Positions 8,137 to 33,941 of a stretch of DNA of 64,000 nucleotides are shown piece by piece. Positions within the stretch are counted from its first letter, which is position 1; every line of letters begins with the position of its first letter. The DNA comes from Bifidobacterium sp. (GTDB lineage: Bacteria > Actinomycetota > Actinomycetes > Actinomycetales > Bifidobacteriaceae), in NCBI GenBank assembly GCA_024104275.1, contig JAGGHK010000007.1, positions 1,654 through 65,653 on the forward strand, in the 5' to 3' direction. A model generated the notes under the pieces. The model was not told where the DNA came from, searched no databases, and worked only from the letters and a program-made list of their open reading frames with translations. Both the position numbers and the translations under genes were made by a program.

Positions 8137-9501
8137 TCAGTCTTTCTTATCCGTGTCGGCGGTGCGGTCGGCTTGGCGCTCGTCTGCGTCGGCCGACGCG
8201 GTGCCGAAGAGTTCGGCGGTCTTGAGCTCGTTGTTCATCACACCCGCAAGGCGTTTGATGCCCAGCGTGATCTTGTCCGGCGTCGGATAGCAGAACGAAA
8301 GGCGCATATGGTGCGTACCGCTGCCGTCGAGGAAGAAGCCGGTGCCGGCCACGTAGGCGACTTTCGCGGTGATGGCGCGGGGCAGCATTTCCTTGGAATT
8401 GAGGCCCTCCGGAATCTTCAGCCAGATGTAGAAACCGCCTTTGGGCTTGTTCCAGGAGCAATACGGCAGATACTCGTGCAGCGCCGCGTCCATGGTGTCG
8501 CAGCGTTCCTTGTACATGCCCCGATACTGGCTGATCTGGTGCTTCCAGTCGAAGTTGTCGAGGTAGGTGGTGATGGTCATCTGGCTCATGTTCGGCGGGC
8601 AGAGGATCGACGCCTCGTTGGCCAGGATGAGCTTCTTGCGGATTCCCGGAGGCGCCACGATCCACGCGATGCGCATGCCCGGCGCGATGATCTTGGAGAA
8701 GCTGGAAAGGTAGACCACGTTTTCGGCGTCCATCGAGCGCAGCGCGGGGTAGGTCTGGCCGTTGAAACCGAGCAGGCCGTAAGGGTTGTCCTCGACGATA
8801 AGTACGTGGTATTTGCGCGCGATCTCGATGATGCGCGGGCGGCGCTCGACGCTCATCGTCACGCCTGCGGGGTTATGGAAATTGGGCACGGTATAAAGGA
8901 ACTTGACCTTTTTGCCGGCCTTGAGCTGGGCCTTGATGGTCTCCTCGAACGATTCGGGAATGAGCCCATCCTTGTCGGTCTGCGCGTTGACCACATCGAC
9001 CTGGAAGGACGAGAAGACGCCGAGCGCGCCCACATAATTCGGGGCTTCGGCGATTACGACATCGCCCGGATCGCACATGATGCGCGTGACGAGGTCGATG
9101 GCGTTCTGCGAACCGTTGGAAATCACCACGTCGTCGGGCTGCACGTCCTTGATGCCTTCGAGCGCCATGATCTGCAGCACGTCCTCGCGCAGATGCGGAT
9201 TGCCCTGCGCCGAGCCATACTGCCAGGCCACGTCTCCCTTGTCCACGAGCATTTTGGCGATAAGTTCCGAGAGCTCCTTGAACGGCAGGTATTCCAAATA
9301 CGGCATGCCGCCGGCCAACGAGACCACGTCCGGGCGCGAGGCCGTGGCGAACAGGGCGCGGATTTCGGAGGCGCGCATGTTGCCGGCGCGGGCCGCGTAG
9401 GAGTCGTACCACGGGTCGTTCTTGAAGACCTTGGACTCGGTGGCTTTTGCAGCGGCTTTCCCCTCGTTCGGTTTTCCGGAAATGTTCTTGGTCTCAGACA
9501 T
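8137..9501 (-). CDS. PLP-dependent aminotransferase class I/II
   Basis: SLAGGMP, YTVPNFHNPAG, EDNPY and SFSKIIAPGMRIAW (PLP lysine) motifs; GAAGGGA SD before ATG 9501. Confidence 0.93.
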   Translation of the reverse strand: MSETKNISGKPNEGKAAAKATESKVFKNDPWYDSYAARAGNMRASEIRALFATASRPDVVSLAGGMPYLEYLPFKELSELIAKMLVDKGDVAWQYGSAQGNPHLREDVLQIMALEGIKDVQPDDVVISNGSQNAIDLVTRIMCDPGDVVIAEAPNYVGALGVFSSFQVDVVNAQTDKDGLIPESFEETIKAQLKAGKKVKFLYTVPNFHNPAGVTMSVERRPRIIEIARKYHVLIVEDNPYGLLGFNGQTYPALRSMDAENVVYLSSFSKIIAPGMRIAWIVAPPGIRKKLILANEASILCPPNMSQMTITTYLDNFDWKHQISQYRGMYKERCDTMDAALHEYLPYCSWNKPKGGFYIWLKIPEGLNSKEMLPRAITAKVAYVAGTGFFLDGSGTHHMRLSFCYPTPDKITLGIKRLAGVMNNELKTAELFGTASADADERQADRTADTDKKD

Positions 9502-9710
9502 CAACCATCCCTTCCTTCGGTTGCAGCCCCGAATCAGACGAGCGCCGCCTTCCAAACAGATTTCGCGCGACTAACGAATATAAGAGAAGACTCTAGTCGC
9601 CGTCGCTCCCCGCGCAATCCTCGACGGGAAAACAGCACCGCTTCAACACGCTTCCGGTGGTTTTGGCGATGGGTGTTGTGCGTGATGTTTTGTCTGATAG
9701 CGACATGCAT

Positions 9711-9776
9711 TTGACGGATGAAAACACTATAGTAAAATTAAGGTAATCGTAATTACCTTAACTACGATTACCTTAA
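9711..9776 (+). promoter_or_regulatory. promoter with palindromic operator upstream of the ATPase_2/DUF234 gene
   Basis: TTGACG-N16-TAAAAT; palindrome TTAAGGTAAT-CGTA-ATTACCTTAA (9738-9761); second inverted 14-mer TACGATTACCTTAA (9763-9776). Confidence 0.7.
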
Positions 9777-9809
9777 TGATGATTTCCTTATAAGTGCGGT
9801 GGCTGCAAT

Positions 9810-11246
9810 ATGGTGAATGAGAATACGAAATTTGTAGGCAGAGCTAATGAACTTGACGTACTTGAAAATGCCGCTGCGAGGCGTATATTCCAAATGGTCG
9901 TTGTCTACGGCAGACGGCGCATCGGTAAAACTGCTCTCATCGCTCACTTCTGCAAGAACAGACGAACCCTTTGGTTTACGGCGAAAGAGCAAAGCTCGGC
10001 AATGAATCTGCGAGAGTTCTCACAGCAGATTTTCGAGTTTTTCGATGAGCCGGGGTGGCCGGGAGGCTTTCCGAGTTGGTCGACGGCGTTTGAGCGTATC
10101 GCCAAAAATGCGCGCAAGGATTCGTCGCATCCGTTCGTCTTTGTGTTTGATGAGTTTCCATACGCGGCTGCGGCCGAGCCCGGCTTGGCTTCATCGTTGC
10201 AAATCGCGATAGACCATCAGTTTGAAGACACCAACATGATGTTGATTTTGTGCGGCAGCAATGAAGGTTTTATGGAAAGCAGGGTGCTGGGTAGTAAAAG
10301 TCCGCTTTACGGGCGGCGGACCGCGCAGATTCACTTGCGACCTTTCGATATTTTCGACGCTTCCAAACTCATGCCGTCTAACGCTTCCTGGCTTGACCGT
10401 GTCCATTATTATGCGACGTTGGGCGGTACTCCCTATTATCTCAAGCAACTTGATGCATCCAAGAACTTCGAGGAGAACATTGAGTCCTTGTGCTTTAACG
10501 TCGGTGGCATTCTTTATGAGGAACCGATGATGCTCATGCGGCAAGAGCTTCGTGAGCCGATGCTTTACAACTCCGTGATTGAAGCGGTGGGATCAGGCAA
10601 GACCAAGCCCAAAGCCATAGCTGAGCAGGCTGGGATGGATAAGGATTCCGTTAGTGCGTATCTGAGGACGCTGGAGTCGCTGGGATTGGTGGAACGCAAC
10701 GTACCTCTTGGCGAAAATCCTGCACGCTCTCGTAAGGGGCTTTGGACCATTAAAGACCCGTTTTTCGCTTACTGGTACCGTTTCGTCAGCCCGCGCGCAG
10801 GTCTGATCGATATGGGTCAGGGGCATGCGCCCGCCGTTTACGGCACTTCCGGCGGCGTATTCGAAACGTATGTGGGCCAGCAGTTCGAGCGCATGTGCAT
10901 GCAGTGGCTCTTCCAGCAGTCGCGCGAGGGAAAGTTTGATTTCCTGCCCACGTCATACGGCAAATGGTGGGGCAACGACCCGGTCGCCAAGCAGCAGACG
11001 GACATCGACGTGGTGATGGCTGACGATATCAATAAGAAGGTGCTGTTGGGCGAATGCAAGTGGCGCGAATCGTTCAATGTCAACGAGGCCGCCGAAAAGT
11101 TGATTGAGCGCTCGCCGTTGATTACCGAAAAGGGCGAGAGATTGTATTTCCTATTCAGTAAATTGCCGGTTCGCGGCGACGTCCAAGGCAAAACCCGACA
11201 ACTTGGCCCGTTCACTTTCGTCGACGCCGAGACGATGTTCGGATGA
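9810..11246 (+). CDS. archaeal-type ATPase (ATPase_2) with C-terminal DUF234 PD-(D/E)XK-like domain
   Basis: FVGR..EL, Walker A YGRRRIGKT, Walker B FVFDEFP, LYGRRT, DPFFAYWYRF and C-terminal DIDVV...GECKW. Confidence 0.9.
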   Translation: MVNENTKFVGRANELDVLENAAARRIFQMVVVYGRRRIGKTALIAHFCKNRRTLWFTAKEQSSAMNLREFSQQIFEFFDEPGWPGGFPSWSTAFERIAKNARKDSSHPFVFVFDEFPYAAAAEPGLASSLQIAIDHQFEDTNMMLILCGSNEGFMESRVLGSKSPLYGRRTAQIHLRPFDIFDASKLMPSNASWLDRVHYYATLGGTPYYLKQLDASKNFEENIESLCFNVGGILYEEPMMLMRQELREPMLYNSVIEAVGSGKTKPKAIAEQAGMDKDSVSAYLRTLESLGLVERNVPLGENPARSRKGLWTIKDPFFAYWYRFVSPRAGLIDMGQGHAPAVYGTSGGVFETYVGQQFERMCMQWLFQQSREGKFDFLPTSYGKWWGNDPVAKQQTDIDVVMADDINKKVLLGECKWRESFNVNEAAEKLIERSPLITEKGERLYFLFSKLPVRGDVQGKTRQLGPFTFVDAETMFG

Positions 11247-11284
11247 TTGGGATTTCTGTGTTGCGATGGTTGTCGATAGTAACG

Positions 11285-11473
11285 TTAATGCAGGATTATT
11301 AATGTTTCTAATGTCGGATTATTGATGACTCTAATGTAGGATTATCGATATTCCTAATGTCGGATTGTGGCATTCTGTCGATAGGAGAAATGCTGTAATA
11401 TCAACGATTATGGTTTGTTGATCACTTGACAAGTAAAAAATCAACAAATCCTAATGTCGGATTGTTGATGTTT
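11285..11473 (+). repeat. 4 x 23-bp tandem iteron-like array plus a fifth copy at a promoter
   Basis: Units start at 11285, 11308, 11331 and 11354 (core CTAATGTCGGATT); fifth copy at 11451, just downstream of TTGACA (11426-11431). Confidence 0.88.
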
Positions 11474-11483
11474 TTAACGCAGG

Positions 11484-11672
11484 ATCGTGGAGGTCAAGGC
11501 TTCCGGCGATTTCCGTGGGCGGCAGGGCAAAGTCCTGACGGATATCGGCGACGCCCTGGATGTGCCGGATTTCAGCCGGCTGATCGTCTACCGTGGCGAC
11601 GCATCGCAGATGGTGCGCAGGCTCAAAGTCGTCGCCGCCCAGGATTACCTGCGGTTCGAGGACGGGAGCTGA
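11484..11672 (+). pseudogene. C-terminal remnant of an AAA_14/DUF4143 ATPase
   Basis: EVKASGDFRGRQGKVL...YRG...DYLRF aligns without gaps to the C-terminus of 17728-18957 (23/56 identical); in-frame TAA at 11475-11477 shows the gene body is gone. Confidence 0.85.
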
Positions 11673-12018
11673 GCGGGTTGAGACCTATGGCTGCGCATAT
11701 GCCAGAACCCAGATGTGAAGGTGTGCGCAAGGCCGACGGTTGTTTGGCTCGTCGGCCCGCACGCGGTATATGGAAGGGCCTTAGATAACCCCATCGGTTT
11801 CGGTCTGCGGAGTGAAGTCCATGTTGGCCACCGTAAAGCTTCGCAGGTGAAAAGCCTCAACCGACATATCCATTATGCCACAGAAAACAAATCTTGAGGC
11901 TGTCTGCTCCTGGCTTCGTGCCCTCGGCTCCGGTCGGGGGCACGTTTCTCTTTTAGCCGTTGTCGGTGGAGAGGATAGATGCTTGTATGGAATCGGGCTG
12001 GCTCGTCTTGTGGCCTTG

Positions 12019-14903
12019 TCAGTGGCGACTGGCCCAGCGGTTGCGGGTGTGTCGGGTGACGGCCACCACTGCAAGGGCGAGTATGCCTGCGCCGAGGAGC
12101 AGCAGCAGGTTGCGCAGGAGCTGCTCGCGTGTGATGCCGGTGAGCGGTATCGCGGAGACGGGTTCCACCGATGGCGGGAACGTGTAGTTGAAGCCGTTGA
12201 CGATGTACGTTCCCCTTGGGCTGGCGGTGGCGGCGCGGGCGGCGAGGGCGCTGGTGTTGCCGGTCCATGCGGGGCTGGTGATGCCGCTCTTGTCGGTCCA
12301 GGTGTGGTCGGGCATGTTGGTGAAGGCGTTGTTGCCGGCGGCGTTCTTGAGTGTGGTCTTCTTGCCGAGTCTGAGGGCCTGGAGGTTTGCTGGGAACATC
12401 TGGTTCATGCTGGTGGCGCTGCCGGTGTCCCAGCCGTTGAGGTCGAGGGCCTTGAGGTTGGGGTTGTTGTCGAAGACGTAGTGCATGTCTGTGACGTTGT
12501 GGGTGTCCCAGCCGCTGACGTCGAGGCTGGTGAGGTTGGAGAGGTTGAAGGTGTCGCCCATGTCGGTGACCTGGCTGGTGTCGAGGTTCTTGAGCCCGGT
12601 GATGGTGGTGAGGTTGGGGTCCTGCCAGAACATGCCGAACATGTCGGTGTTGCCGGAGCCGTTGAGGTTGGTGACGTCGATGGTCCTGACCTTGGGGAGC
12701 CTGCCGAACAGGAGGCGGCCTCCGGCGTAGGTGGCCTGGCCGGTGTTGGACGCGAGTCTGACGCCGGGCTTGACGGTGGCGGAGGTGACGCTGTCGTCGG
12801 TCCAAGGGACTTTGGTGTCATGGGTGGTGCCGGCTGAGTGGTCGGGCACGGTGCCGGAGTCGAGGCTGAGCACGCATTCCGCGCTCTCGCCCTCGCCGGT
12901 GAGCGTCTCGCTCCAAGTCAGCGTGCCCCAGGTGTGGGTGCCGGGCTGCGTGCACGCCGTCGGGAACGAATAGGAGACGCCGGAGACCACGTACTCGCCG
13001 AGAGGATTGGTGCTCGCGCGCGTAGCCAGTTGGACGGTGGTGCCGCTCCATGGCGGGTTGAGGCTGTCCGGTGGGTTGTGGCTTCCGCTCTTATCCACCC
13101 AAGTGGCGGCCTGGTTGACGTCAGCGAATGCGGCGTTCGGTGACGTGTTCAACAGCTTGGTCTTCTTGCCAAGCCTAAGCGCCTCCAGATTTGGCGGCAG
13201 CATCCCGGTCACGTCGGTAGCGCCCGTGGTGTCCCAATTATATAAATCAAGGGTGGTGAGTTTAGCATCGTTTTGGAACATCCGATACATGCTGTAACCG
13301 GTTGTAACCTTTGCGGTTTCCCATCCACCTATCCCCTTCAACGTTTCCAGGTCAGGACAGTTTGCAAAAAGATAATGCATATCTTCGACGTTTTTCGTAT
13401 CCCAATTGGATAAGTCGAGTTCTTTCAAGCCAGTGGTGTTGAACGAGCCTCCCATGTCTTTAACGGCAGAGGTGTCCCAGTTTTCCAATCCTGTGATTTT
13501 GGTGAGTGATGGATCTTTCCAGAAAATACCGAACAGATCCGTATTCCCAACAGTATATAAGTTGCCCAAGTTGGCAGTTTTGAGCGATGGCAAGGTGCTG
13601 AACAGAAGACGTCCGCCTGTTGGGGCAAGATTGACGTCTTCTTTTACTTCGATATCGATGATACTGTCGTTGACCCAGGGGGTGGGAATATCGTTTGCTG
13701 CGGATGACCCTTGGTGGTCGGGTACAGTGCCGTTGGTGAAGGTGAGGGTGCATTCGGAGAGTGCACTGTCTGGCGTCTCCTGCCAGTCGAGGGTGTGGGT
13801 GTTGTCGGTCCAGTGGTGGCGTCCGGCTTTGGTGCACACGAGTCCCGAATTCTTGTACATGTCGGTCTGGTCAGCGTTAGCGGGTATATCGAGTCCGGGG
13901 TTGCCGATGGTTTTAAGATTGGTGCAGTTCTGGAACATATTGTTCATGTAGACTGCGGCGGCTGTGCCCCAACCGGACAAGTCCAGGGTATTAAGCTTTA
14001 CGTCATTGTAAAACATAAAGCTCATATCGCGAACAGCATCAGTATTCCATTGGGTGATACCGGGCAGTGACGTGAGATTGGGACAATCCCGAAATGCCTC
14101 TTTCGTATCGGTGATGTTCTTGGTGTCCCATTGTTCAAGACCAGTGATTTCGGTGAGTAGTCCGCAGTCGAGGAAAAGCCAGCGTATTGATTTGGTGGTT
14201 GGATTGCTGAGGTCGATGCCGTTGACTTGAGCTGTTTTTAAGGCATGCATGTGAGCGAAGAGGTTGGCGCCGTCCAATGCGACGACGTTGCCAGTGACGA
14301 TGACTTTGGTGACGGTGTACTCTTGGTTGTTTATATGCCAAGGTCCGATTGCCATGTAATTGATGGCGTTGTCAGGTATTGTCCCGCTTTCGAGTTCCAG
14401 CACGCAGTCGTTGCCATCGATGTGCTCGTTCCAATGTAGCGGATCGGTACCGCCGCTTTCTGGCCATTTGTGTTCGCCGGGCTTGGCGCAGGTTACGTCC
14501 TGCGGGCCGACGGCGGTTTTGGCGGGGTTGCCATCGGTTTTCTTTGCGTTGTTGGCTGAAGGTTCCTTGTTGTCGGTTTTCGCTGCGTCGGAGGCTGTCG
14601 GTTTGGTGGTGTCGGAATCTGCTGTCTTGGAAACGTCAGGCTTGGTCTTGCCGGTGTCTTCTTTTGGTGTCGAAGGATTTGTCTCAGTGGGCGTTGAGTT
14701 GTTTTCGCCCGATTCCGTGGTTTTCGGATTCTGCGCAGATTGTGGCTGGGAGGTTATCGCGTTTTCAGCGATTGCGGACGGGGGGTGCTTGATTGTGCGT
14801 TGTCAAGGCCGGATTGCGGTGCGGGGGCGTTGGCGGATAGCAGCGCGAGGGCGGTGAACATGACCGCGATCTTGCCGCCAATACCGTTGTGCCGCAACGC
14901 CAT
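12019..14903 (-). pseudogene. BspA-like leucine-rich-repeat (DUF285) sortase-anchored surface protein, frameshifted
   Basis: AAGGAGG SD and signal peptide from ATG 14903; frame shifts at a C6 tract (G6 at 14780-14785 on plus); downstream frame open 14802 to 12019; three WDT/LDTS-type LRR blocks; IPLTG + TM + basic tail. Confidence 0.85.
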
Positions 14904-15061
14904 TCCGGAGCCTCCTTGTAAAGCCACACCCAACACTGCGTCTAATAAACCATACAAGGTTAAGAATACCGTTTCGACAGTACAACTATGTCTTACGCCG
15001 CGGAATCGTCACAATATGTTCGACTGTGCCGGGAATGCCTCAGCATGACCGGATGTGGCGC

Positions 15062-15361
15062 TTAATCTGAAGCTTGGCCGGCCTTGTGGTTCAGGTAGGC
15101 CATGGCGTTGGCGGCGTTGCCGAACGTCGGCGAATCGTCGGGCACTTTCCCGTCGGCTCTTTCCTGCGCGTATCGCATCGCCTCGAGGGTGGCTTTTCGG
15201 GGGTTGTCGGCGAAGGGGCGCTCGGTGAAGATGCCATCGAGATCATCCATGGTGATTTCCCGATTCGGATGGAGCACCAAACCGATCGTTTCTGGAGTGG
15301 TGTGTGCGTAACTGTCGGAGGTTTCTTCCCCTATGGTCTTATCACCTCGCTGGTTGTTCAT
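15062..15361 (-). CDS. small protein whose C-terminus resembles RelB/DinJ antitoxins
   Basis: GAAAGGGG SD; PF..NP...TLEAM..A..........F....AM..L pattern recalls the DinJ C-terminus; N-terminus not recognised. Confidence 0.5.
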   Translation of the reverse strand: MNNQRGDKTIGEETSDSYAHTTPETIGLVLHPNREITMDDLDGIFTERPFADNPRKATLEAMRYAQERADGKVPDDSPTFGNAANAMAYLNHKAGQASD

Positions 15362-15408
15362 CGTTCCCCTTTCCTGCTTTGCAAAACGGCTGATTGTTTA
15401 TGGGCGGC

Positions 15409-15433
15409 AGTTGGTGCAAATTTTGCACCAACT
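15409..15433. promoter_or_regulatory. perfect palindrome (operator or terminator)
   Basis: AGTTGGTGCAAA-T-TTTGCACCAACT, 12-bp arms, ~50 bp upstream of the 15361 start and at the AlbA_2 gene stop. Confidence 0.65.
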
Positions 15434-17045
15434 AGAATTTCTCTGAGCTCTTCCTTGTTGGTGTCGGCAACGTATAACGCGTGGCCGAGCCTTTACCTGT
15501 GCGGCGCAGAACACCGTCTGCGACGAGCTTGCGTAGGATTCCCTTGGCTTTTGTTGGCCCCGAGCCGAGCAATTGTTGTGTTTCAGCCCTGGTGATGTCA
15601 CTGTGTGTGCCGAGGTAGGCAAGTATGATGTCCCGTTCGTTACCTTTCCGAATTTCAGTGTCGATTGATGTTGAAGCAGCCGGAACGGGTGCGGTGGTAT
15701 TGCCATCAAGGTGAGGCAATTGGGCGTCGGTGTCAATGGCGGTGGGAGGCTCCCCGCTATCAGGATTTTGCGCTTTGCTCTTGCCAAGAGGGTGACCCTT
15801 GCCCTCAGCCGCGCTCAAGGTGAACGCAAGTTGTGTGCGGTCTGGGTCGAACGATTCCGTCAACCGGGGGTCGGGAAGGCCGGCCCAATCGCAACCTGCT
15901 CGCATGGCGTCGAAGCCGCTGCCCGCGCGTTCGGCGATGGAGATGAGCGAGAACATCTTCAGCAACGTGGGGTTGCGGGAATCGGAAATGCCGCCGGCCA
16001 TCGCCACGTCGGCGGGGATTCGCAGGCCGCCGGGGTTGGCGAAGGTGATCTTGTCCTTTTGCAGGATGATGACGGTGTTGCCACGCATGTAATAATCGGC
16101 GTGGATGAGGGTGTTGGCAAGCGCCTCGCGCAAAGCCAGGTGCAGAGGGGTGTCGTCGATCCTGCGTGAGTCGGCATTGACCATGAACGGCCTCGGCACT
16201 GCTTGGGTCAGCCTCTGCCAGACGCGCAGCCAGAAATCATAGAGGTTTCCGCTCCATTCCCCATCGCCGCTGACTATTCTGTGGTCCCAACGATTGGTGC
16301 CGTTTAGCTGCTCCCTGTAGTCGAGGAAAAAGTACGGAAATTCGCGCGTAATCATCCATTCCTTGCCGAACATTAGTAGGCCGGCGCGGGTCGGGCGGGG
16401 TTTGTTGCCCTCGCCTTTGGCGCTCGCTCCCAGGCGCAAGAGGAATTCGTCGGTATCGAGTGTGAGCCAGGGGTGGTTGGGCCGCGCGGCGCTCATGGTG
16501 TTGCGGTACGCGTTGACGGTGCCTTGGTTGAGGTCGTCCAGCGAGAATTTTTCAAGCGGCATCTGATCCAGGGTGATGGTGCCGTCGCCTTTGTCTCGTA
16601 CCATCGCGTGGTATTCCTCTTCAGAGCATTGGTAGTCTCCTTCGCCGTTGCGGCGGTAGGTGCCGCCGATGGGGTTGCGGTTGAGATATAGGGGTTTGGA
16701 CTCGCGTTCCGCGCGTGGAACATGGATCACGACTATGGAAGCGTTGTCGACCGGTTCTATCGAAACATCTTCCTCATCAAGCACGTTGGCGCTGACTTTT
16801 TTGCGATCGTTGGCCGTGTCCCAGAAATTTTTCACTATACGTTCTGGGTCTCTTAAACCTGTAGGAATCAGGTTGTGATGCGTGTCTTCGCTGACGCCGA
16901 GCAGGATTATTCCGCCATTAGTGTTCGCGAAGGCGGAGTAAGTTTCCCAGACGCTTTTGGGAACGCCGCCTTCTGCACTCTTCGCTTCAAGGCGGTTGCC
17001 TTCGTGCCAGTGTCTCAATTCTTTGAGATCGAACATGACTGCCAT
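15432..17045 (-). CDS. Schlafen/AlbA_2 domain + HATPase_c_4 (RecG C-terminal-like) + C-terminal HTH protein
   Basis: EGNRLEAK, SAFANTNGGIILLGV, REALANTLIHADY, NPGGL, RNPTL, ERAGSG and C-terminal ITRAETQQLLG...L..LV..G.L. Confidence 0.88.
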   Translation of the reverse strand: MAVMFDLKELRHWHEGNRLEAKSAEGGVPKSVWETYSAFANTNGGIILLGVSEDTHHNLIPTGLRDPERIVKNFWDTANDRKKVSANVLDEEDVSIEPVDNASIVVIHVPRAERESKPLYLNRNPIGGTYRRNGEGDYQCSEEEYHAMVRDKGDGTITLDQMPLEKFSLDDLNQGTVNAYRNTMSAARPNHPWLTLDTDEFLLRLGASAKGEGNKPRPTRAGLLMFGKEWMITREFPYFFLDYREQLNGTNRWDHRIVSGDGEWSGNLYDFWLRVWQRLTQAVPRPFMVNADSRRIDDTPLHLALREALANTLIHADYYMRGNTVIILQKDKITFANPGGLRIPADVAMAGGISDSRNPTLLKMFSLISIAERAGSGFDAMRAGCDWAGLPDPRLTESFDPDRTQLAFTLSAAEGKGHPLGKSKAQNPDSGEPPTAIDTDAQLPHLDGNTTAPVPAASTSIDTEIRKGNERDIILAYLGTHSDITRAETQQLLGSGPTKAKGILRKLVADGVLRRTGKGSATRYTLPTPTRKSSEKF

Positions 17046-17052
17046 CCTCGCA

Positions 17053-17260
17053 TCGGTCGTTTATCGGTCGTGGTCAAAGTAAAAGGCCTTGGACGCGACC
17101 GATATATCGTATAAATAGTAATTGTATCGGTCGTTCGTGACCGATGCGCGACCGATAAAGCGGTATTTGCGTCCGATAACGACCGAGAGTCGGTCGTTCG
17201 CGACCGATACGCGGGAATTTGTGACCGATACGCGGGAATTTGCGACCGATGTGAGACCGA
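17053..17260. repeat. GACCGA/TCGGTC motif cluster with a 21-bp tandem repeat
   Basis: 12 exact hexamer copies in ~210 bp; 21-bp unit G(C/T)GACCGATACGCGGGAATTT at 17200 and 17221, partial third at 17242. Confidence 0.85.
17082..17171 (+). repeat. ~90-bp direct repeat, copy 1
   Basis: AAAGGCCTTGGACGCGACCGATATATCGTATAAA... aligns without gaps to 18918-19007; internal CGACCGATA/TATCGGTCG palindrome. Confidence 0.88.
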
Positions 17261-17533
17261 TGTGCGACGGGTAAACGTGCAGTTGCGTCCGATACGTGAC
17301 AGTTGTGGTGCCGCTGGCGTCGAAGGTGAATTGCGTGGCCCGCCGGGTCTTGGCTAGAACCAACCATGCCCCGATCCAAAAGAATCGGAGGGCGCAATAT
17401 CGGTATCGCCGTGCCATATAGACACCGCCTAAGACTAGGTCGTTGTAGATTTATGGAAGGCGATCGAATGGACCGTTGAAGTGGGGCGTCTCCCCGCCTG
17501 TTAAAAGTAGGTGATTTTGAATGCTCCAAATCG

Positions 17534-17625
17534 CTATGTCAGTGATTTGAAAGTACCTATGTCAGGATTATGGAGATTTCTACATCAGTGATTTGAAAAT
17601 TACTATGTCAGTGATTTGAAATATG
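17534..17625 (+). repeat. 4 x 23-bp tandem iteron-like array upstream of the AAA_14/DUF4143 gene
   Basis: Units start at 17534, 17557, 17580 and 17603; consensus CTATGTCAGTGATTTGAAA. Confidence 0.9.
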
Positions 17626-17727
17626 ATAAGTCATGATTTTGGAAGTGCGGCAAACGCTAAAGAAACGGTTGCCAAGTCGGAGGCCGCACCTAATCGTCAG
17701 ACAGATTGCCAAGTCGAGGAGGGTCAA

Positions 17728-18957
17728 GTGATACCAAGGACGCTTGAGAGCTATACGCGCAAACTGGCGACGTGGTTTCCTGTGGTTTCCGTCACCGGCC
17801 CCAGGCAGAGCGGCAAGTCCACGCTGATTCGTCACGTATTCAAGGACTATGAATATCTCAACCTTGAAGACCCGGAGGTGCGTAGGGCCGCAGCCTTAGA
17901 TCCGGTAGGATTCATCAGGGATCGCCCGGCCAAGCTCATCATCGACGAAGCGCAATACGTCCCCGACCTGTTCTCCATGATTCAGGTGGAATCCGACGAA
18001 CGCAATACGCCCGGGCAGTACATCATCTCCGGTTCGCAGAATTTCCTGATGCTGAAAAACATCAAGCAATCACTTGCGGGGCGTGTGGGCATCATGAAGC
18101 TGCTGCCGCTTTCATTCGCGGAAGCCCAAGCCTCTGAACGTAAGCCGAGTGTCGACGAATTCATGTTGAGAGGTGGCTATCCGCGGCTTTACGACATCGA
18201 TATCAGTCTGGGAACGTATTTCCGCAGCTACACCGACAGCTATATCGAGCGGGACGTCACCGATTACCTTGACGTACGCAATAGCACCGATTTTCGCACG
18301 TTTCTGCGTCTGTGTGCGCAAAATGCCGGGAATCTGGTCAATTACACCGGCATGGCGGACGATTTGGGGGTCAGTTTCAGAACAGTGAAATCATGGTTGT
18401 CGATTCTGGAATCGAGTTATATAACCTTCCCGTTGATGCCGTATTACAAAAGCGTCGGCAAACGGCTTGTCAAGACTCCTAAACTGTATTTCTATGATAC
18501 CGGGCTGCTCTGCAATCTTCTTGGTATCCGCAGCCTGCAGGAGCTTTTGGTGCATCCCAAGCTCGGTGCGGTCTTTGAGAACCTTATCGTTGCGGAGACT
18601 GCCAAGCGTTGCTACAACGCCGGTGAGGAGCCGGAACTTTACTTTTACCGTGACGAGAGCAAGCGTGAGATAGATCTGGTGGATCTGGCTCGGCCTGCCG
18701 AGCCGCTGCTGCTTGAAGTCAAATCTTCCAGGACATATAACAATCGACAAAGCAAGTCGCTTGCGGAAGTGGGCGAGGAGCTTGGCGTGCCCCCGGAGCA
18801 CAGGGCCGTGATCTATCGCGGCAGTGAACAAGCGCAGATGAAGAAGTCGGCGTTGGTGCGGGCGGCGGATTACCTTCGGTTTGACTATCCGGAGGGTACG
18901 CTGCCCGTGGAGGGCCGAAAGGCCTCGGACGCGACCGATATATTGTATAAAAATTAA
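17728..18957 (+). CDS. AAA_14 ATPase with DUF4143 (PD-(D/E)XK-like) domain
   Basis: GAGGAGG SD before GTG 17728; Walker A GPRQSGKST, Walker B IIDEAQ, GSQ, LAGR, GGYP, KTPKLYFYDTG, EIDL...EVK. Confidence 0.92.
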   Translation: MIPRTLESYTRKLATWFPVVSVTGPRQSGKSTLIRHVFKDYEYLNLEDPEVRRAAALDPVGFIRDRPAKLIIDEAQYVPDLFSMIQVESDERNTPGQYIISGSQNFLMLKNIKQSLAGRVGIMKLLPLSFAEAQASERKPSVDEFMLRGGYPRLYDIDISLGTYFRSYTDSYIERDVTDYLDVRNSTDFRTFLRLCAQNAGNLVNYTGMADDLGVSFRTVKSWLSILESSYITFPLMPYYKSVGKRLVKTPKLYFYDTGLLCNLLGIRSLQELLVHPKLGAVFENLIVAETAKRCYNAGEEPELYFYRDESKREIDLVDLARPAEPLLLEVKSSRTYNNRQSKSLAEVGEELGVPPEHRAVIYRGSEQAQMKKSALVRAADYLRFDYPEGTLPVEGRKASDATDILYKN

Positions 18958-19007
18958 CTATATTGGTCGTTCGCGGCCGATAAGCGTCCGATAAGGCGGC
19001 GTTTGCG
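18918..19007 (+). repeat. ~90-bp direct repeat, copy 2 (overlaps the 3' end of the AAA gene)
   Basis: AAAGGCCTCGGACGCGACCGATATATTGTATAAA... matches 17082-17171. Confidence 0.88.
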
Positions 19008-19014
19008 CCCGCCT

Positions 19015-21507
19015 TTAGTACATCGCAACGTGGTTGATGTAGAGGGAGTGGTTGGGCAGGGAGTCCATGGGGACCCAGAGCAGGAAGTCCTGGGACTTGA
19101 CGGGCTTCTGCAGCTTGACCTCGGTGGTGCCGCTTTGGTCGAAGGTGAACTGCGCGACGCGCTGGCCGGCGTTCGGGTCCTGCGCGGAATTGGCGATGAG
19201 GTAGCCGGTGCCGCCGGACGTGCGGATCTGAACGACAAAGCGGGTGACGGTGGCCGGCTGGCTGATGTGCATGTAATACGCCAAGCCGTCCTGTCCGGCC
19301 GGGCTCTGATAGAACTCCTGCTTGTCGATGGTCAACGGCGTATTGTTCACGGGAATCGAAGGCGTGGGTACGGCGTTGGCGATCTTGTCGGCCCGCTTCA
19401 CCTTGGAGCCGGAACCGGCCTCGGACTTTGACGCAGATCCGTCCGAAGTCTCGGATGAGGAGGTGCCGCCCTGCTTGTTGGAATTGCCGGAATTGTCGCT
19501 ACTGCCGGCGTTTTGGTCCGCGTTGTCGCCTCCGTTGCCTTCCGCTCCGAAAGGCACGTTGTTGAGGTTCATCTTGGGCCACGGGTCGGAGCTGGATCGC
19601 TGGTAGGAACCGGTGCCCTTGCTGTTGTGGTCGATCAGTACGAACGCGGCGACTCCTGCGGCCGCAAGAATCAGCACGATGACGGCGATGATGGCGACGA
19701 CCTTGGTCGTGAGCTTGCCCAAAAGCGGGGTATCGGCGATGTCGTCGCCGGTCGGGTTGTCGGATTCCTGCTGGGTTTTCTGCGCGGGCGTGAAGCTGGG
19801 AGGCGTGATCACCGGGTTGGCGGCGTCGATTGCTTCCTGCTCGGCTTGCAGCGCGGCCGCGGACTCGTGTCCGGGCTCGATGAAATTGCCGTCGGCGTCG
19901 AGCAGCGGGATGCGGCCCGTCGCCTCGGTGCGGTTGCCGGGGGTGGTGTCGTGCGCGTTGGGGGTGTTGCCCTTCATCGCAAAGTCGAATTGCATCGTGG
20001 GATTGGTGGTCTGCACGGTGTTCTGGTCGAAGTCCGGGAAAATGGAATCGTCGGCCGTGGAATCGAAGGATTTGAAAGCGTCCGCCATCTCCGCGGCGGC
20101 CAGATCGTGCAGATCCATGCGCGGGGCTGCGGCGTTGTCGAGGTCGTTGGAAACGGTCTGGTTGCCGCCCGACTTGCCGCGTTGACGCCACCATCTCGAA
20201 GACCTGTCTTGTGCAGGGGAGGCCGGATTCGCGTTTTGTGCGGCAGAGGAATGGACACTTGGGTTGTTTGCGCCGGAAACCGTTGAAACGGCCAGGCTGC
20301 CTGACGCGGCACCGCTTTCGGCGGGCAATGGCGACGAGACGTTTTGCGCTGAAGCCGCGTTTGAAGCGGCCGACGCGTTGCCGATATCGCCGGAATTTCC
20401 GTTGGTGTTCCCGCCTTCGGATTTCGGTTGGTTCGCGGAGCCGAGCTTAACCGGGTTGGCATTCCCTTGCGCGGCGGCAGGTGCTGTAGGAGATGCGGAA
20501 GCGGCGGGAGAACCGGCAGGAGCGGCTCCTGCGCCCGCATGTTTTTGCGCTGCGTCCGCCAGAGCACTAGCACCCGCGGCTGCAGCGACGCCATTGGCCG
20601 CCGCCGACTCTGCGGCGCTGGCCGCCTGACGCGCGCGGAACTGCAGCTGGTTGGTCGAAAGGTTCTGCGGGAAATCAAGCAGATTGGCCGGCCGTGCCCT
20701 GCGCAACCGAAGTCGCGAGATGGAAGCCTCGCCGTCGGAATTCGGCCGTTTCAGTTCTTTTGCAGGAAGTTTCGCCACCGGTTTGGCATCGCCGAGCAGG
20801 GCGACGAGTTCGGAAAGGGAAACCATCGAAAGGGTGGGGCTCCCGTCCGCACCCTTGATGGGCAATCCGCGTTCGCAGATGATGCGCAATTCTTCCGGGG
20901 TGTCTTCCGGAAGTGCGGAAAGGTCGAAATCCTTGATTTCCGCGCTCCATTTGCCGGTGAGCATGGCATAAAGCAGACCGGCGAGTTCGTGGACGGCCAG
21001 CATTTCCGGTTCCAGGTGCTGTTCGTCAGGACTATTGACGAACATCGCTTCGAGCGGGGCATCGGCGATCTGAACGCCCTTGGATGTAATACGTATAATA
21101 TCGGTGCTCAAAGCCCGCATCTTCACGTCGTCGCGAAGCAGCGTTTCCAAGCCATCGGCGACTTCGGCGAGGATGGAACGCATCGCTTCGCTTCCAAGCT
21201 TGCGCGTGCCATGGCCGATGTAATTGTTGAGCGAAAGCCCCTGGTCGAGATGCGTGATGAGCACAGGGATGTCACCGACGTGCTGCATCTGGATGACCTG
21301 CGTGAAATGCGGGTTGCGCGAAAGGGTGAGCGTCGATGCGATGGCCTCGAAGCTCGGAATCGCGGCCTTGTCGGTGACGATGAACAGCTGGCAGTCACGC
21401 GCGAGAACACGGTCGTTGGCCTTCCAAGCTTCGAGCCCGGGTATGCTACGCAGCGGCGACACCAACGTATATCTGCTGATGACGATATCTCCCAGCTGTG
21501 GCTTCAT
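19015..21507 (-). CDS. MurJ-associated pseudokinase-like membrane protein
   Basis: N-terminal kinase-like fold (W.A.D.VL.R) lacking canonical HRD/DFG, long Ala/Ser/Asn linker, one TM and a C-terminal extracellular domain; GAGGA SD; adjacent to murJ. Confidence 0.8.
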   Translation of the reverse strand: MKPQLGDIVISRYTLVSPLRSIPGLEAWKANDRVLARDCQLFIVTDKAAIPSFEAIASTLTLSRNPHFTQVIQMQHVGDIPVLITHLDQGLSLNNYIGHGTRKLGSEAMRSILAEVADGLETLLRDDVKMRALSTDIIRITSKGVQIADAPLEAMFVNSPDEQHLEPEMLAVHELAGLLYAMLTGKWSAEIKDFDLSALPEDTPEELRIICERGLPIKGADGSPTLSMVSLSELVALLGDAKPVAKLPAKELKRPNSDGEASISRLRLRRARPANLLDFPQNLSTNQLQFRARQAASAAESAAANGVAAAAGASALADAAQKHAGAGAAPAGSPAASASPTAPAAAQGNANPVKLGSANQPKSEGGNTNGNSGDIGNASAASNAASAQNVSSPLPAESGAASGSLAVSTVSGANNPSVHSSAAQNANPASPAQDRSSRWWRQRGKSGGNQTVSNDLDNAAAPRMDLHDLAAAEMADAFKSFDSTADDSIFPDFDQNTVQTTNPTMQFDFAMKGNTPNAHDTTPGNRTEATGRIPLLDADGNFIEPGHESAAALQAEQEAIDAANPVITPPSFTPAQKTQQESDNPTGDDIADTPLLGKLTTKVVAIIAVIVLILAAAGVAAFVLIDHNSKGTGSYQRSSSDPWPKMNLNNVPFGAEGNGGDNADQNAGSSDNSGNSNKQGGTSSSETSDGSASKSEAGSGSKVKRADKIANAVPTPSIPVNNTPLTIDKQEFYQSPAGQDGLAYYMHISQPATVTRFVVQIRTSGGTGYLIANSAQDPNAGQRVAQFTFDQSGTTEVKLQKPVKSQDFLLWVPMDSLPNHSLYINHVAMY

Positions 21508-21667: not shown

Positions 21668-24280
21668 TCAGCGTGCGTGGTGACGGGCGGCTTTGGAAAT
21701 CTCGGCCTCGAAGGCCGTCTCCTCGTCCAGGGAAGCAGGCGGCAAACCCAACGATGCCGGGGTTAGCCAAGCGAAATTATCGGTTGAGATCGAAGGTTTG
21801 GAACCGGATTCTGCCGGGGGCTGCGGTTGGGCATCTCCATCGTCGCTGGCGACATCGGCGTCGGTTTCGGCGTTGGCATGCCCATGTGCCATGTCTGCGG
21901 CGTCGAAAAGCGGCTTGATCTCAGAGGCCGGGCGCTCGCTATAAGGCGAATCGGCGGAATCGATGGGTTCGATGGGAAGTGGCGGAAACTGTGTCTCGTC
22001 GGCTCTGCTTGATTTTGAAAGCGCGGAAACGGAAGAGAATGTCAGGTCATCGGATATTTCGGAATCCGGGAACGGGCTCGGCTTTTGGGGTTTCGAATTG
22101 GCGGGCGACGGCTTGGCGTCTTGAGACGTTGGTGCGGATTCGGCGATATCGTCCGTCCCTTCGCCGATTGGCTGATTGCCGCGCGCAATATTACTATTCG
22201 ATGAAATATAGTCCAATGGATTGAAACCGACCGGGGCATAATGCCGGGCGCGAACTACTCCGAACGGAAATTTACCGTCCTCGGATTGAGGGGACCTCGT
22301 TTCCGTATCGGTGCTGTTGGCGTTCGTGAAAGGCATGCCCTCTACTGTAGTTGCGTTGTCTGTGAGCGGTGAGCCGGATTTTTCTTGAGTTTGTGCCATA
22401 TTATGGGCATTTGCATCGGGCGCGTCCGGTTCGACTGGATGGGGTGGGTCTGGTTCTGTGGCGTCGGGCGCGTCCGGTTCGGTAGGCACGTCCATATTGC
22501 CGGGAATACCTGCGTTTTCGATTTCCTCCACCTTTGCGGAATCGTCTTTCTGACGACTATCGAAAAGATCCTCGCCATGTTCGCTGCCGCCGCCGGGAAT
22601 CTCTCCTCCGGGAAGCCTGATGCCGAATTTGCCGGCCAGCGAGCGGGCGATCGGCATCAGTTCCTGCGTGCGAAGCACCCATAGCGTACCCACATAAAGC
22701 AGGGCGATGACGATGGCGAGCACGCAGCACACGCCGACGGCCTGGAACCAGTTCATATGCCCGCCGCGCACGCCCGCACCCGGCTCGATGTCGGCTCCGA
22801 ACAGCCCGTAGACTGGATAACGCAGCAGCATGCCGCCTGCGATCGCAACGAGCGAGGCGATGATGCCTTTGGCGAATGCCGTGGCGATGCGCTTGCCATC
22901 GAGCCGGCCGTTGAACCGTTTCCGCACCATATAGACGATGACAGGGAAGGCGAAGATGAACGACAGCGACATCGTGACGCCCACGGTGGTGGCCCAGTTG
23001 AACGGCGAGATGAACAGGATCGCGATGACAATCATCAGCGCCTGCCCGCCCGAGACCAGCAGGGTGAAGAAGAAGGGATGGTAGCCGTCTTCGAAGGCAT
23101 AGAACGTGCGTTGGATGATGAGATAGGTCGAGGAGAACGGCAGGCCGATGGACAGCGCGGCCAAAGGCCCGGCCATCAGTACCGCTTCCTTGACGCTGAC
23201 GCTGGGCAACAGGGCAAGCGTGATCGGCGTGGGGATGACGATGAACATCACGCTGAACAGGCACATCATCAGCCAGACGTTGCGCAGCGAGCCGCTGAGG
23301 TCCTCTCGTGCGCCGTCGATGTCGTGGTCGGCGATGGCCTGCGAGATCTTGGGGAACATCGCCGTGGCGACGGACGTGGCAATCAGCGAATAGGGCAGGA
23401 TATAGATGGTGTTGGCGTTCCAATAGCTCGCGTTGCCGGCCATATCGAGCGCGTTGAGATGAAGTTCGGCCGCCTTGCCAGGCACGCTGGTGAGCACGCG
23501 CTGGTTGACGATGGTCTGCAGCTGGTCGACCACGACGATGCCGATGCCCCAGGCCGCCACCGATCCCATCGAACGCAGGCCGAAGCCGTGGATGCCCCAG
23601 CTTGGCCGGTAATGAAGGCCGATTTTGCGCAGCGGCAGGAACAGGATCAGCGCCTGAAAAGCGACGCCCAGCGTCCATGCGCCCGCGGTCAGGGCGATTT
23701 TCTCGCTGGTCCAGAAGCTCAGGGGTTGCGTGTTCGCGTGGCCGAACATGAAGATGAAGACCGTGAAACCGATGCAGCTGATGACGTTGGCGCCCACCGA
23801 GCTCCAGGCGTAGGTGCCGAAATGGTCTTTGGCAGCGAGAATCTGGCCGAGAACGGTGTAAAGGCCATAGAAGAAAATCTGCGGGACGCACCAGAAGGTG
23901 AACGAGGTGGCGAGGGCCAGCATATCGTGATTGCCGTTGACGTAGAGGCGCGTAAGCGGAGGCGTGAGCAGCGCCACGAGCAGCGTGACGCCCAGCAGCA
24001 AGGCGATGGCGAGGGTGACGAGCTTGTTGAGCCGATCCTGCGCGTCCTTTTTTTTGAGCGTACGCACGATCTGCGGCACGAGCACCGCGTTGAAAATGCC
24101 GCCGGAAACCAGGGTGAAGATGACTTGGGGAATCTGTGAACCGGCTTGGTAGGCGTCGGCTGCCAAGCCCGTCGTGCCGAGGGCCGCGGCGAGCAGGATG
24201 GTGCGAACCTGGCCCGTGATGCGGCTTGCGGCCGTCCCCACGGCCATAACCATCGAATTATGACCTACAGATGAGCTCAT
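21668..24280 (-). CDS. murJ: lipid II flippase MurJ (MviN) with a long acidic C-terminal tail
   Basis: GTAASRITGQVR, SGGIFNAVLVPQIV, PQIFFYG, ATAMFPKIS; many TM segments. Confidence 0.93.
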   Translation of the reverse strand: MSSSVGHNSMVMAVGTAASRITGQVRTILLAAALGTTGLAADAYQAGSQIPQVIFTLVSGGIFNAVLVPQIVRTLKKKDAQDRLNKLVTLAIALLLGVTLLVALLTPPLTRLYVNGNHDMLALATSFTFWCVPQIFFYGLYTVLGQILAAKDHFGTYAWSSVGANVISCIGFTVFIFMFGHANTQPLSFWTSEKIALTAGAWTLGVAFQALILFLPLRKIGLHYRPSWGIHGFGLRSMGSVAAWGIGIVVVDQLQTIVNQRVLTSVPGKAAELHLNALDMAGNASYWNANTIYILPYSLIATSVATAMFPKISQAIADHDIDGAREDLSGSLRNVWLMMCLFSVMFIVIPTPITLALLPSVSVKEAVLMAGPLAALSIGLPFSSTYLIIQRTFYAFEDGYHPFFFTLLVSGGQALMIVIAILFISPFNWATTVGVTMSLSFIFAFPVIVYMVRKRFNGRLDGKRIATAFAKGIIASLVAIAGGMLLRYPVYGLFGADIEPGAGVRGGHMNWFQAVGVCCVLAIVIALLYVGTLWVLRTQELMPIARSLAGKFGIRLPGGEIPGGGSEHGEDLFDSRQKDDSAKVEEIENAGIPGNMDVPTEPDAPDATEPDPPHPVEPDAPDANAHNMAQTQEKSGSPLTDNATTVEGMPFTNANSTDTETRSPQSEDGKFPFGVVRARHYAPVGFNPLDYISSNSNIARGNQPIGEGTDDIAESAPTSQDAKPSPANSKPQKPSPFPDSEISDDLTFSSVSALSKSSRADETQFPPLPIEPIDSADSPYSERPASEIKPLFDAADMAHGHANAETDADVASDDGDAQPQPPAESGSKPSISTDNFAWLTPASLGLPPASLDEETAFEAEISKAARHHAR

Positions 24281-31416: not shown

Positions 31417-32673
31417 CTAGATTCCGGCAGCAGCCGCCAGCGCGACGAACTCATCAATGGTCAGCGTTTCGCCGCGTCTCGTGGGGTCAATCCCGGCTTT
31501 TGCGAATGCTTCCGCCGGTACCAGCTTTTTCAGGGCCGCGTGCAGGGTCTTGCGGCGTTGACCGAAAGCGGCATCGACGAGCTCAAACACCTTCTTGCGA
31601 TTGGCTTTCGAGGTAATGGGCGAGGCAGGTCGAGCTGAATCTTTCGTGGATTGCAAGCTTTTTGTATTACTTTCTTCGTCGCCATTAGTAACTTGCATTT
31701 TGCCTGTATCGTGTGGCATTTCGGTTTTATTGTCATCATTGTCATTGCCGTAACGCGTAAATGAGACTAACGCGGAATCGACGTTCGGCGCAGGCCAGAA
31801 AACATTACGGCCCACCAGTCCGACGCGCTCGGCCCGGCCATACCATGCCAGCTTTACACTCGGAGTGCCGTAGATCTTGGAGCCGGGTTTGGCCGCGAGC
31901 CGATCAGCTACTTCCTTCTGTACCATGACTAGAAAATGGTCAAGGTTTTCAAACCGTTCGAGCAGTGTCAGCAAAATCGGCGTCGCCACGTTGTATGGCA
32001 AATTCGAGACCAGTGTAAACGGATTGTCGTTGCAGGCAATGTCCGAGTTACTAGACGATGATTTGGCATTGTTCAGTGACGTTTCGGAAGACGACACACC
32101 ATCACTTGTAATATTTTCAATGGAATTGCTGGGTAAAGTCCCAGATAGCGATGCAGCATTGTTCATATTGTCGGTAAGTGAAGCTGCCCTGGTTTTCGGC
32201 AGAGATGTATCGCAATTATGGTTTCCTGCCGATTTACTCGGCGCAAATGCGGGCAACGTTTCAGGGCTCAGGCTCATGGCATCGGCGGTGACCACGGTAA
32301 GTCGGCCGGCCGCTTCCGGCATGAATTCGGCGATGGTTTCCGGCAAGCGCGCTGCCAGCGCCGGGTCTATTTCCACCGCGGTGACGGCAGCCCCGGTTTC
32401 CAGAAGCGCCAAGGTAAGTGAGCCCAGCCCCGGCCCGACTTCGAGCACTTTAGTATCCGCGGTAACGCCGGCCTCGCGCACAATGCGCCGCACGGTTCCT
32501 GGGTCGATAACAAAGTTCTGCCCAAATTTCTTGGTCGGGCTGATCCCGGCTTCGGCCGCGATCCGCCGGATATCCCCCGCCCCCAACAGATGTCCTGTGT
32601 GGAGCAAACCGCCGGTATCCGTTCTCTGTTCGTTCATGCTTCTCAAATTACTCGTAGGCGTGGCGTGGCTCAT
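31417..32673 (-). CDS. rsmA: 16S rRNA adenine dimethyltransferase with two low-complexity insertions
   Basis: [49 protein letters not shown]. Confidence 0.95.
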
Positions 32674-33941
32674 TGTTTTGCTGTCAGCCAGTCGATGATA
32701 TTGACAATGTTGATGCCGTCTTCGGTGGTTCCGGTGGAAAAATGGTCCAAAGTCAGCACGGTTTTGGGGAACGAGTCGCGCAAAGCCTGCAACGGTGCGA
32801 GTTCGCGGGCGCGAACATCAGCGCCGAGCATGGTTTCCGTGACTTGGAAATATTCAATTTTCTCGTATTTACGTGCTACGAAATCGACTTCGGCTTTCCC
32901 GTCGGTGCCGACCTCCACCTTCCAGCCGCGGCGTAAGAGTTCGTTATAAACTACATTTTCGAGTTGGAAGCCTCTGTCACTATCGGAAAAGTTGGTGGTC
33001 ATGTTGCGTAGACCGTTGTCAACCGGGTAAAACTTCCGCTGTGGGTTCAGCAACTGTTTACCTCTGATTCCCGTTCGAGAAGCCTCGTGGACAATGAGAG
33101 CCTGTTCCAAGGCGGCGATGTAATTATCGACTGTTTCGGATGAGGTCTTTCGTCCGCCACTGGTTAGTGCTCCGACCACTTTATTCGTGGAAAAAAGATT
33201 GCCCGAAGTTGAGAACAGATAAACCACTAAACGGTTGAGTAAAGCGATATCGCGAATGTCGAGTCTCTCGGCAACATCTTTGAGAATGACCGTGTTATAA
33301 ATAGAGTCCAATTCGAGTCGGATGATTTCAGGATCCCAGGAATTCAGTGAGAAAAGGCCGGGCATGCCGCCATATTTCAGATATTCTCCGAACAATGCAT
33401 CATATGATTTGTTTTTTAGCTCCCCTGTCTCGCTGTTGGGATTCAAATCCGCGAAATGGCGAACGAAGCTTAAATATTCCGTAAAAGACAGCGGATAGAT
33501 GTCAATCGTGATGGTCCGGCCTGCGAGTAATGTTGCCAGGTCGCCTGAGAGCAGGCTCGAGTTCGAGCCCGTGATATACACATCGGTGTCTGCCCTGGTG
33601 TGGAGGCCGCGCACGACTCTTTCCCAGTTTCTCACCTCTTGAATCTCGTCCAGAAATACATATGTTTCAGATTCGGGTTTGGTTTTTTTGAAGGCATCGA
33701 GCAGTTCATTGGTTAGGGTTTCCTCGGTTTGGAATGGTGCTTGGCCGAGTTCATCGAAGCGTTTGTAGAAAATGTTCTGTTGCGGGACGCCGCTATCGAG
33801 AAGTTGTTTGCACAGCATGCGCAAGATGGTGGATTTGCCGCAACGACGGACACCTTGGAGTACTTTCACCGGTTCAGTGTTGAGAAAGGGCCGCAATAAT
33901 TCTAGGTACTTTGGCCGGGGTACTTCACGGTCTAATGGCAT
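32670..33941 (-). CDS. AAA_14 ATPase with DUF4143 domain
   Basis: Walker [10 protein letters not shown], Walker [40 protein letters not shown]; ATGA overlap with rsmA. Confidence 0.92.

Follow-up and report, generated by a model that had tools for sequence, protein, structure and literature searches.

The 64,000-nucleotide (nt) stretch of Bifidobacterium sp. contig JAGGHK010000007.1 analysed here (the window, in whose positions all coordinates are given) carries an ATPase gene of the AAA_14 and DUF4143 families (the AAA gene) between two direct repeats, an arrangement that an earlier note on the same DNA had taken for a cassette open to precise excision or amplification. To its left lies a minus-strand gene (15432–17045) encoding a Schlafen-like AlbA_2 domain together with a HATPase_c_4 domain (Pfam E-values of 1e-12 and 2e-12), and to its right lies the minus-strand gene called pk here (19015–21507, stop codon at 19015–17), which was previously labelled a pseudokinase and is linked to MurJ (21668–24280, minus strand). 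The pk protein has no match in Pfam and no PDB sequence match; in Gardnerella its homologues bear the name "kinase", and in other bifidobacteria they form fusions with MurJ. Its orthologues all come from Bifidobacterium sp. ESL isolates, and the source of the window is a bee-gut Bifidobacterium. Between these two genes stand the left repeat (L), an isolated fragment of pk, an upstream block (U), an array of 23-nt units, the AAA gene, and the right repeat (R), with the AAA gene as the sole gene between L and R.

The repeat search aligned L (17082–17175, plus strand) with R (18918–19011, plus strand) over 94 nt without gaps, with 78 of the 94 positions identical (83%), a spacing of 1836 nt, and a blastn E-value of 3e-22 for the pair, so the ungapped direct repeat of about 90 bp described in the earlier note is real. 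The two copies differ at 17% of their sites and nowhere agree for more than 17 nt in a row. The 34-nt core pattern of the unit occurs at just two sites in the 64-kb window, with none expected from shuffled sequence, and the unit was detected neither at the pk locus of four related species nor in a scan of the JGI metagenomes with the repeat core (no matches), the search of this genome being confined to the 64-kb window. A single copy is found upstream of the nearest AlbA_2 homologue (84% identical), which adjoins pk on L008, a contig of another ESL isolate. Over the 94 nt, L and L008 share 82 positions, L and R share 78, and R and L008 share 74, with private changes numbering 12 in R, eight in L008, and four in L. 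The alignment of the window with L008 is unbroken at 84% from within AlbA_2 through L to 17207, and the match between L and L008 runs on beyond the unit at both ends; the homology of R to either is limited to 18918–19011. L, which occupies positions −37 to −130 relative to the start codon of AlbA_2 and is the counterpart of the single L008 copy, would be the native copy in front of AlbA_2, and R a displaced and truncated copy of an AlbA_2-type upstream region.

The region upstream of AlbA_2 (17046–17304) resembles an operator, in that it packs 12 copies of the motif GNCCGAT/ATCGGNC, with spacings of 11, 21, and 31 nt, into 259 nt, compared with 0.66 copies per kb over the remaining window. The motifs occur in both orientations, are GCGACCGAT-like, and are helically phased around an AT-rich palindrome, and the interval 17200–17268 within the array is built of 21-nt and 11-nt tandem units. 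Nine copies of the motif are present upstream of AlbA_2 in L008 (L008:1500–1700) and three in R. On another contig, L012, a 58% identical AlbA_2 homologue located between transporter and glycosidase genes carries another 8-mer, GCGGACAC, ten times in the equivalent position (L012:2837–2982). Because the L008 alignment is continuous, the motif array is dense, and the L012 array occupies an equivalent position, the repeat unit is assigned to the AlbA_2 module, of which it would form the operator or promoter region, and the earlier view of the repeat as a neutral target sequence is replaced by that of an operator-like AlbA_2 upstream region. The upstream arrays of these AlbA_2 + HATPase_c_4 genes, composed of 7–9-mers with a motif that differs between homologues, resemble a co-evolving operator array. 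At the opposite end of the gene, a hairpin CAGTTGNTGCAAA…TTGCANCAACTG is kept in both the window (15406–15435) and L008 (L008:1432–1462) with a compensatory G:C to T:A change, overlapping the AlbA_2 stop codon in the former and lying 3′ of the pk stop codon in the latter. Metagenome contigs break or join at 15407, at this hairpin, which is a possible module border or terminator common to both.

A second duplicated piece is the isolated fragment of pk 3′ coding sequence (17305–17346, minus strand; QFTFDASGTT), which the repeat search found to be 42 nt long and 81% identical to pk 19124–19165 at a spacing of 1819 nt. The diverged copy of the pk 3′ end reported earlier at 17305 is thereby confirmed; tblastn with pk recovered 17345–17289, and the local alignment score of the fragment is 26, compared with a mean of 6.4 and a maximum of 13 among shuffles. 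The fragment is 79–86% identical to the pk genes of six genomes, values too similar for a donor to be named, and it has a non-homologous joint on each side. The 129 nt to its left (17176–17304) have no significant match in the final 112 nt of pk, either in the window or in five related genomes, and their reading as a degenerate pk 3′ end was rejected on this negative result for six pk genes. As this interval is not derived from pk, two separate pieces were duplicated, with no single block of about 260 bp, and the proposed target duplication of that length therefore falls away. On the right-hand side, pk is followed directly after its stop codon by a GC-rich hairpin (18993–19014, minus strand) made up largely of R-specific substitutions, and folding of R is strong on both strands (z of −3.2 and −3.8); this hairpin is probably the terminator of pk, for which R would have been co-opted. 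A search of Rfam over 16900–19200 gave nothing above the gathering score, with sub-threshold chance matches in the coding region only, and a scan for consensus promoters and terminators gave no enrichment.

The AAA gene (17728–18957, plus strand) encodes 409 amino acids (aa) from a GTG at 17728, which is most likely its start since all homologues begin with MIPR or MTPR at this point; a ribosome-binding site AGGAGG lies at 17717–17722, and the ATG at 17623 is an unlikely alternative. Both of its domains score above the gathering threshold (PF13173 at 93.9 bits and PF13635 at 155.8 bits), the Walker A, Walker B, and E-x-K residues are all intact, and the match to PADLOC model PDLC04790 (E = 1.1e-99) places the gene in PDC-S01 by the sequence definition of that system. 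PDC-S01 reportedly ranks fourth in frequency among the candidate defence systems of prokaryotes, with a mechanism that is not known and a defence function listed as unvalidated (PMC12988326), and in architecture it is a fusion of an ATPase with a PD-(D/E)XK-type domain (PMC12988326; PMC3424549). The AAA gene is accordingly named here as a PDC-S01 candidate defence gene, with a presumptive role in defence. Among 5.8 billion proteins searched, its closest homologue (P0117) is 70% identical; an exact-protein look-up of the window pk and AAA proteins (two start choices each) returned no match, nor did a PDB sequence search with the AAA protein. The open reading frame (ORF) ends at 18957, about 13 codons within R, as the earlier note had seen. 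P0117 itself continues past DYLRF and ends in DYLRFDYPDATLPGTRPTTK*, and therefore homology to the AAA family extends to about 18907 and only the last 16 or so codons are foreign. The earlier comparison with the remnant homologue, which stops at DYLRFEDGS*, is thereby corrected. A third, distant AAA_14 and DUF4143 gene lies elsewhere in the window (32670–33941, minus strand; 24% identical), and upstream of it, at 34040–34130, GTATAACTGAAA occurs three times at intervals of about 40 nt in AT-rich surroundings.

Upstream of the AAA gene are five phased 23-nt tandem units with the core CTAnGTCAnGATT (17534–17648, plus strand). All the close PDC-S01 genes examined have 4–8 exactly phased units of this kind 60–105 nt before their start. 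Arrays of this type lie at window 17534–17648 and 11286–11480, L009:3759–3942, L010:3782–3896, and L002:12544–12640, and the PDC-S01 paralogues of ESL0800 are preceded by 23-nt-type arrays as well. The array is absent upstream of distant plasmid homologues in Runella and Moraxella, where a large palindrome is found instead, and nothing obvious precedes the Thermus copy. Block U (17356–17533, plus strand) is common to the window and ESL0732 (72–84% identical), and in the latter U and four 23-nt units are located directly at the pk stop codon as an orphan array without any AAA gene, with the same left boundary of U as in the window. Within the left part of U (17356–17440; L002:12723–12807), 43 nt are shared almost without change by ESL0732 (…GTATCGCCGTGCCRTATAGACACCGCCTA…), and the conserved U block had no matches in the JGI metagenomes. 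A decayed second PDC-S01 copy is present at 11286–11672 (plus strand), where a 23-nt array is fused to the last 62 or so codons of the gene (…DYLRFEDGS*). In the same-species metagenome contig X8, about 1.8 kb containing an AAA_14-like piece separates the aminotransferase gene from a homologue of 11478–12163, and this contig has space for a complete PDC-S01 gene at the position of the decayed copy. Unlike X8, the window has in 9663–11672 a PDC-S27 gene (ATPase_2 and DUF234; 9810–11246), with 15-nt repeats at 9752–9790, followed by just the array and the 3′ stub of the PDC-S01 gene.

All of these modules belong to a variable island of 9.4 kb (9663–19014) between an aminotransferase gene (8137–9555, minus strand) and pk. 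The relatives compared were ESL0784, ESL0732, ESL0728, ESL0690, and the strain of L008, together with metagenome contigs of the same species; a scan of genome contigs with pk gave ESL0784 only, and the other relatives were reached through protein matches. In ESL0784, the pk stop codon is followed by about 95 nt and then by a homologue of window 9662–7091, which includes the aminotransferase gene, so that 9663–19014 is extra in the window. The same slot is occupied by a DUF285 gene in ESL0732, three small genes in ESL0728, and RelB/YafQ in ESL0690, and six different contents between the same conserved flanking genes identify it as a hot spot. Contigs from insect-gut metagenomes match pk at 98.8% from 19016 onward (30 differences in 2484 nt), with about 99% identity in the aminotransferase flank, and thus represent the same species as the window. 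In these contigs, 19016 (at the pk stop codon) and 15330 are connected by 373 unrelated nt, and the island, of only 4.8 kb, lacks AlbA_2, both repeats, and the AAA gene. Among the remaining genes of the window island, the DUF285/LRR surface-protein gene (12019–14403, minus strand) has very different versions in relatives (1643 aa in ESL0732), and contigs of the X16 metagenome show many rearrangement joints within it. An orphan RelB-like ORF (15062–15361, minus strand) is chimeric: the C-terminal 47 aa match the ESL0690 RelB at 72% identity, in contrast to an unrelated N-terminal half, and the ORF is not followed by a YafQ-type toxin gene.

Comparison with relatives that lack the AAA gene limits what can have happened at this locus. 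L008 has no AAA gene, and its order is the pk 3′ end, an AT-rich hairpin spacer, the motif array, the repeat, AlbA_2, and a block homologous to 14809–15072. The earlier expectation that an AAA-less strain would have one repeat copy between AlbA_2 and pk therefore agrees with L008, but there is no clean join, because about 260 nt of array tail and AT-rich hairpin spacer, not present in the window, separate its repeat from pk. Compared with ESL0732, the window holds two extra blocks (15019–17355 and 17644–19014) and thus not one cassette. Entry of an AAA cassette between AlbA_2 and pk as the sole event is not supported, given these two blocks and the same-species strains, which are without AlbA_2 too. 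Recombination with DNA of another lineage is nevertheless plausible, because the whole island differs from that of same-species strains with flanks of about 99% identity; this part of the earlier proposal stands, as the AAA gene is extra relative to other genomes and foreign DNA is a credible source.

Four joints can be recognised between L and pk. At joint (a), near 17305, the array behind L meets the 42-nt pk piece with a GT/TG overlap at 17304–17306; by eye, 17176–17304 also has GTGACAGTTGT in common with the spacer hairpin of L008. At joint (b), the pk piece ends at 17346 and is followed by 9 nt before U starts at 17356. Joint (c) (18908–18917) lies between the end of AAA homology and the start of R, and here the final few codons of the AAA gene are gone and 16 new ones are read instead. 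At joint (d), near 19011, R meets the pk stop codon through a GCGCCCG overlap, which by eye is found downstream of pk in ESL0732 too. In the X16 metagenome, contigs about 94% identical to the AAA gene include the joint between AAA and R, and therefore this joint has been inherited through about 6% of divergence. The contig across the joint spans 18853–18945, with differences listed up to 18915 and none later, although differences near a contig end go unreported. The same metagenome has an 89% identical AlbA_2 contig that ends within L at 17118.

The locus has little in common with a mobile element. No recombinase family was found by Pfam among the main ORFs of the island, which matched only ATPase, DUF285, and AlbA_2 families, and the repeat search found no terminal inverted repeats pairing the segment ends. 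There is no integrase or attachment (att)-like site and the nearest tRNA is at 36739, and overall the features of a transposon, an integrative element, or a recombination-competent repeat are missing here. A transposable element with a target-site duplication was rejected for want of a transposase or recombinase and of inverted ends, and for repeats that are 83% identical and not the same. RecA-dependent exchange requires a perfect match of about 20–30 nt and drops off sharply as sequences diverge, and with 83% identity and a longest run of 17 nt, excision through L and R should therefore be rare. An empty allele joined at the repeat was not found, since the repeat of L008 lies about 260 nt from pk and the same-species form is joined at 15330/19016 instead. 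A search of the sequencing-run index gave no run with the source strain (best word share of 0.21, and 0.07 for the AlbA_2–AAA part). The precise excision or amplification suggested earlier is not supported by repeats of this divergence or by an AAA|R joint kept through about 6% of sequence change; L and R are not the ends of an excisable cassette, and excision is unlikely.

The explanation that accounts best for these observations, and that is considered reasonably probable, is that L and R are old scars of illegitimate recombination between alternative modules of a composite defence-type island, left by successive events that were not site-specific. The starting point would have been two alleles that each abutted pk, one with AlbA_2, its array, and pk in the order seen in L008, and the other with U, the 23-nt array, the AAA gene, a relic of an AlbA_2-type array, and pk; ESL0732 could represent the remainder of the second allele, with U and the array but no gene. 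An illegitimate crossover may then have joined a point about 150 nt inside one copy of pk to the left edge of U, placing the two alleles in tandem. The dead pk stub would later have been trimmed by deletion to 42 nt, so that the fragment is a separate scar between two further joints, and R would have become fused on the left to the AAA gene, clipped at its 3′ end, and on the right to the pk stop codon. Such a history would call for no recombinase encoded by an element, and with repeats too diverged for efficient excision the structure would be stably inherited.

Several observations weigh against this account or leave room for others. For the proposed order of fusion, no genome was found with the allele of U, AAA gene, relic, and pk by itself, and the closest AAA homologue is 70% identical. 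The tree of L, R, and L008 is unrooted and has three sequences, and its change counts (12, 8, and 4 in R, L008, and L) would also fit an old duplication in place. The near-equal offsets of the two duplicated pieces, 1836 and 1819 nt, are left as a coincidence. The operator and terminator roles are proposed from sequence pattern, the 65-nt spacer of ESL0732 shows a marginal similarity to R (p of about 0.03), and the AlbA_2 and AAA contigs of X16, which are unequal in depth and identity, could belong to different strains.

The most credible of the rival histories, even if an unlikely one, follows the earlier note: a single event brought an AAA cassette of a related lineage into the junction of AlbA_2 and pk and doubled a target of about 260 bp (the repeat and the pk 3′ end). 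Campbell-type integration of a circularised fragment could have had this effect, as could homology-facilitated illegitimate recombination. Both duplicated pieces do lie in the same order at nearly the same offset, L008 has the predicted single-copy allele, and the divergence of L from R and of the pk fragment (17–19%) resembles that between lineages at the locus. However, the 129 nt between the two pieces are non-homologous to the pk end, the L008 repeat is some 260 nt from pk and not adjacent to it, and in ESL0732 U adjoins pk without AlbA_2, so that the module of U and the AAA gene has its own history beside pk. In addition, a crossover within 94 nt of 83% identical DNA would be very inefficient given what RecA requires.

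The arrays themselves could have a part in these rearrangements. Beyond any operator role, those of PDC-S01, AlbA_2, and PDC-S27 might act as recombinogenic borders at which modules of array plus gene are gained, lost, and shuffled, a doubtful proposal at present, under which L and R, the orphan array of ESL0732, and the deletion from array to 3′ end at 11286–11672 would all be products of the same process. The internal repetitiveness of the AlbA_2 array (17139–17178 and 17255–17294 are 80% identical, in addition to the 21-nt and 11-nt units) speaks for a different history, in which L and R arose by tandem duplication in place within that array, with the pk fragment, U, and the AAA gene inserted between them later. 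The private changes, four in L, 12 in R, and eight in L008, fit a duplication after the split from L008. Against this history, L008 has no second copy, more events are needed, the AAA block must land exactly between the copies, and the truncation of R coincides precisely with the AAA joint on one side and the pk stop on the other, which leaves it only a slim chance. A mobile cassette of array and AAA gene, moved by nuclease-driven homing or site-specific insertion with the 94-nt repeat as its attachment or target site, is very improbable and self-mobility of the module is much less likely than the other histories, for although close paralogues in ESL0800 are solitary array-plus-gene units of about 1.4–1.5 kb between housekeeping genes, the left edge of U is identical in two different contexts, and the protein has a PD-(D/E)XK-type domain, the repeat is part of the AlbA_2 module and is absent by blastn from the other AAA loci examined, terminal repeats and an identical target duplication are lacking, and the decayed copies and orphan array indicate loss by deletion over clean excision.

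If scars of illegitimate recombination are the correct reading, the repeat-flanked "cassette" reflects ordinary genome plasticity in a scarred modular island, situated in a hot spot between core genes, and involves no new mechanism of mobility. The locus then provides a worked example of how candidate defence genes stack and decay in bee-gut bifidobacteria, leaving stubs, clipped ORFs, and regulatory DNA that may be reused as a terminator. The part worth following is the conserved, phased upstream arrays of PDC-S01 and AlbA_2-type genes, which offer a concrete experimental handle on DNA binding, autoregulation, or sensing.

Among known systems, the window AAA gene agrees with the PDC-S01 family in both Pfam domains, the PADLOC match, and the architecture of an ATPase with a PD-(D/E)XK-type domain, but the nearest database protein is only 70% identical to it and its C-terminus has been exchanged for a foreign read-through. 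A composite transposon or insertion sequence similarly has a gene between direct repeats of similar length, whereas the repeat in the window is functional-looking upstream DNA of a neighbouring gene, is 83% identical between copies, and comes without transposase or inverted ends. In homology-facilitated illegitimate recombination and at microhomology joints, foreign segments are joined at short overlaps. The overlaps in the window, GCGCCCG between R and pk and GT/TG at 17304–17306, along with the stubs and clipped ORFs, would be of this kind. The closest parallel is with defence islands and hot spots, as the aminotransferase gene and pk/MurJ flank different cargo in every genome compared, within the species the island varies between flanks of about 99% identity, and the cargo in the window is of defence type (PDC-S01 twice, PDC-S27, the Schlafen-like AlbA_2 gene, and an orphan RelB-like antitoxin). 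The island in the window differs from such islands in having no integrase, transposase, tRNA, or att-like site, and its modules instead appear to have been stacked by illegitimate joints that left behind stubs and duplicated regulatory DNA.

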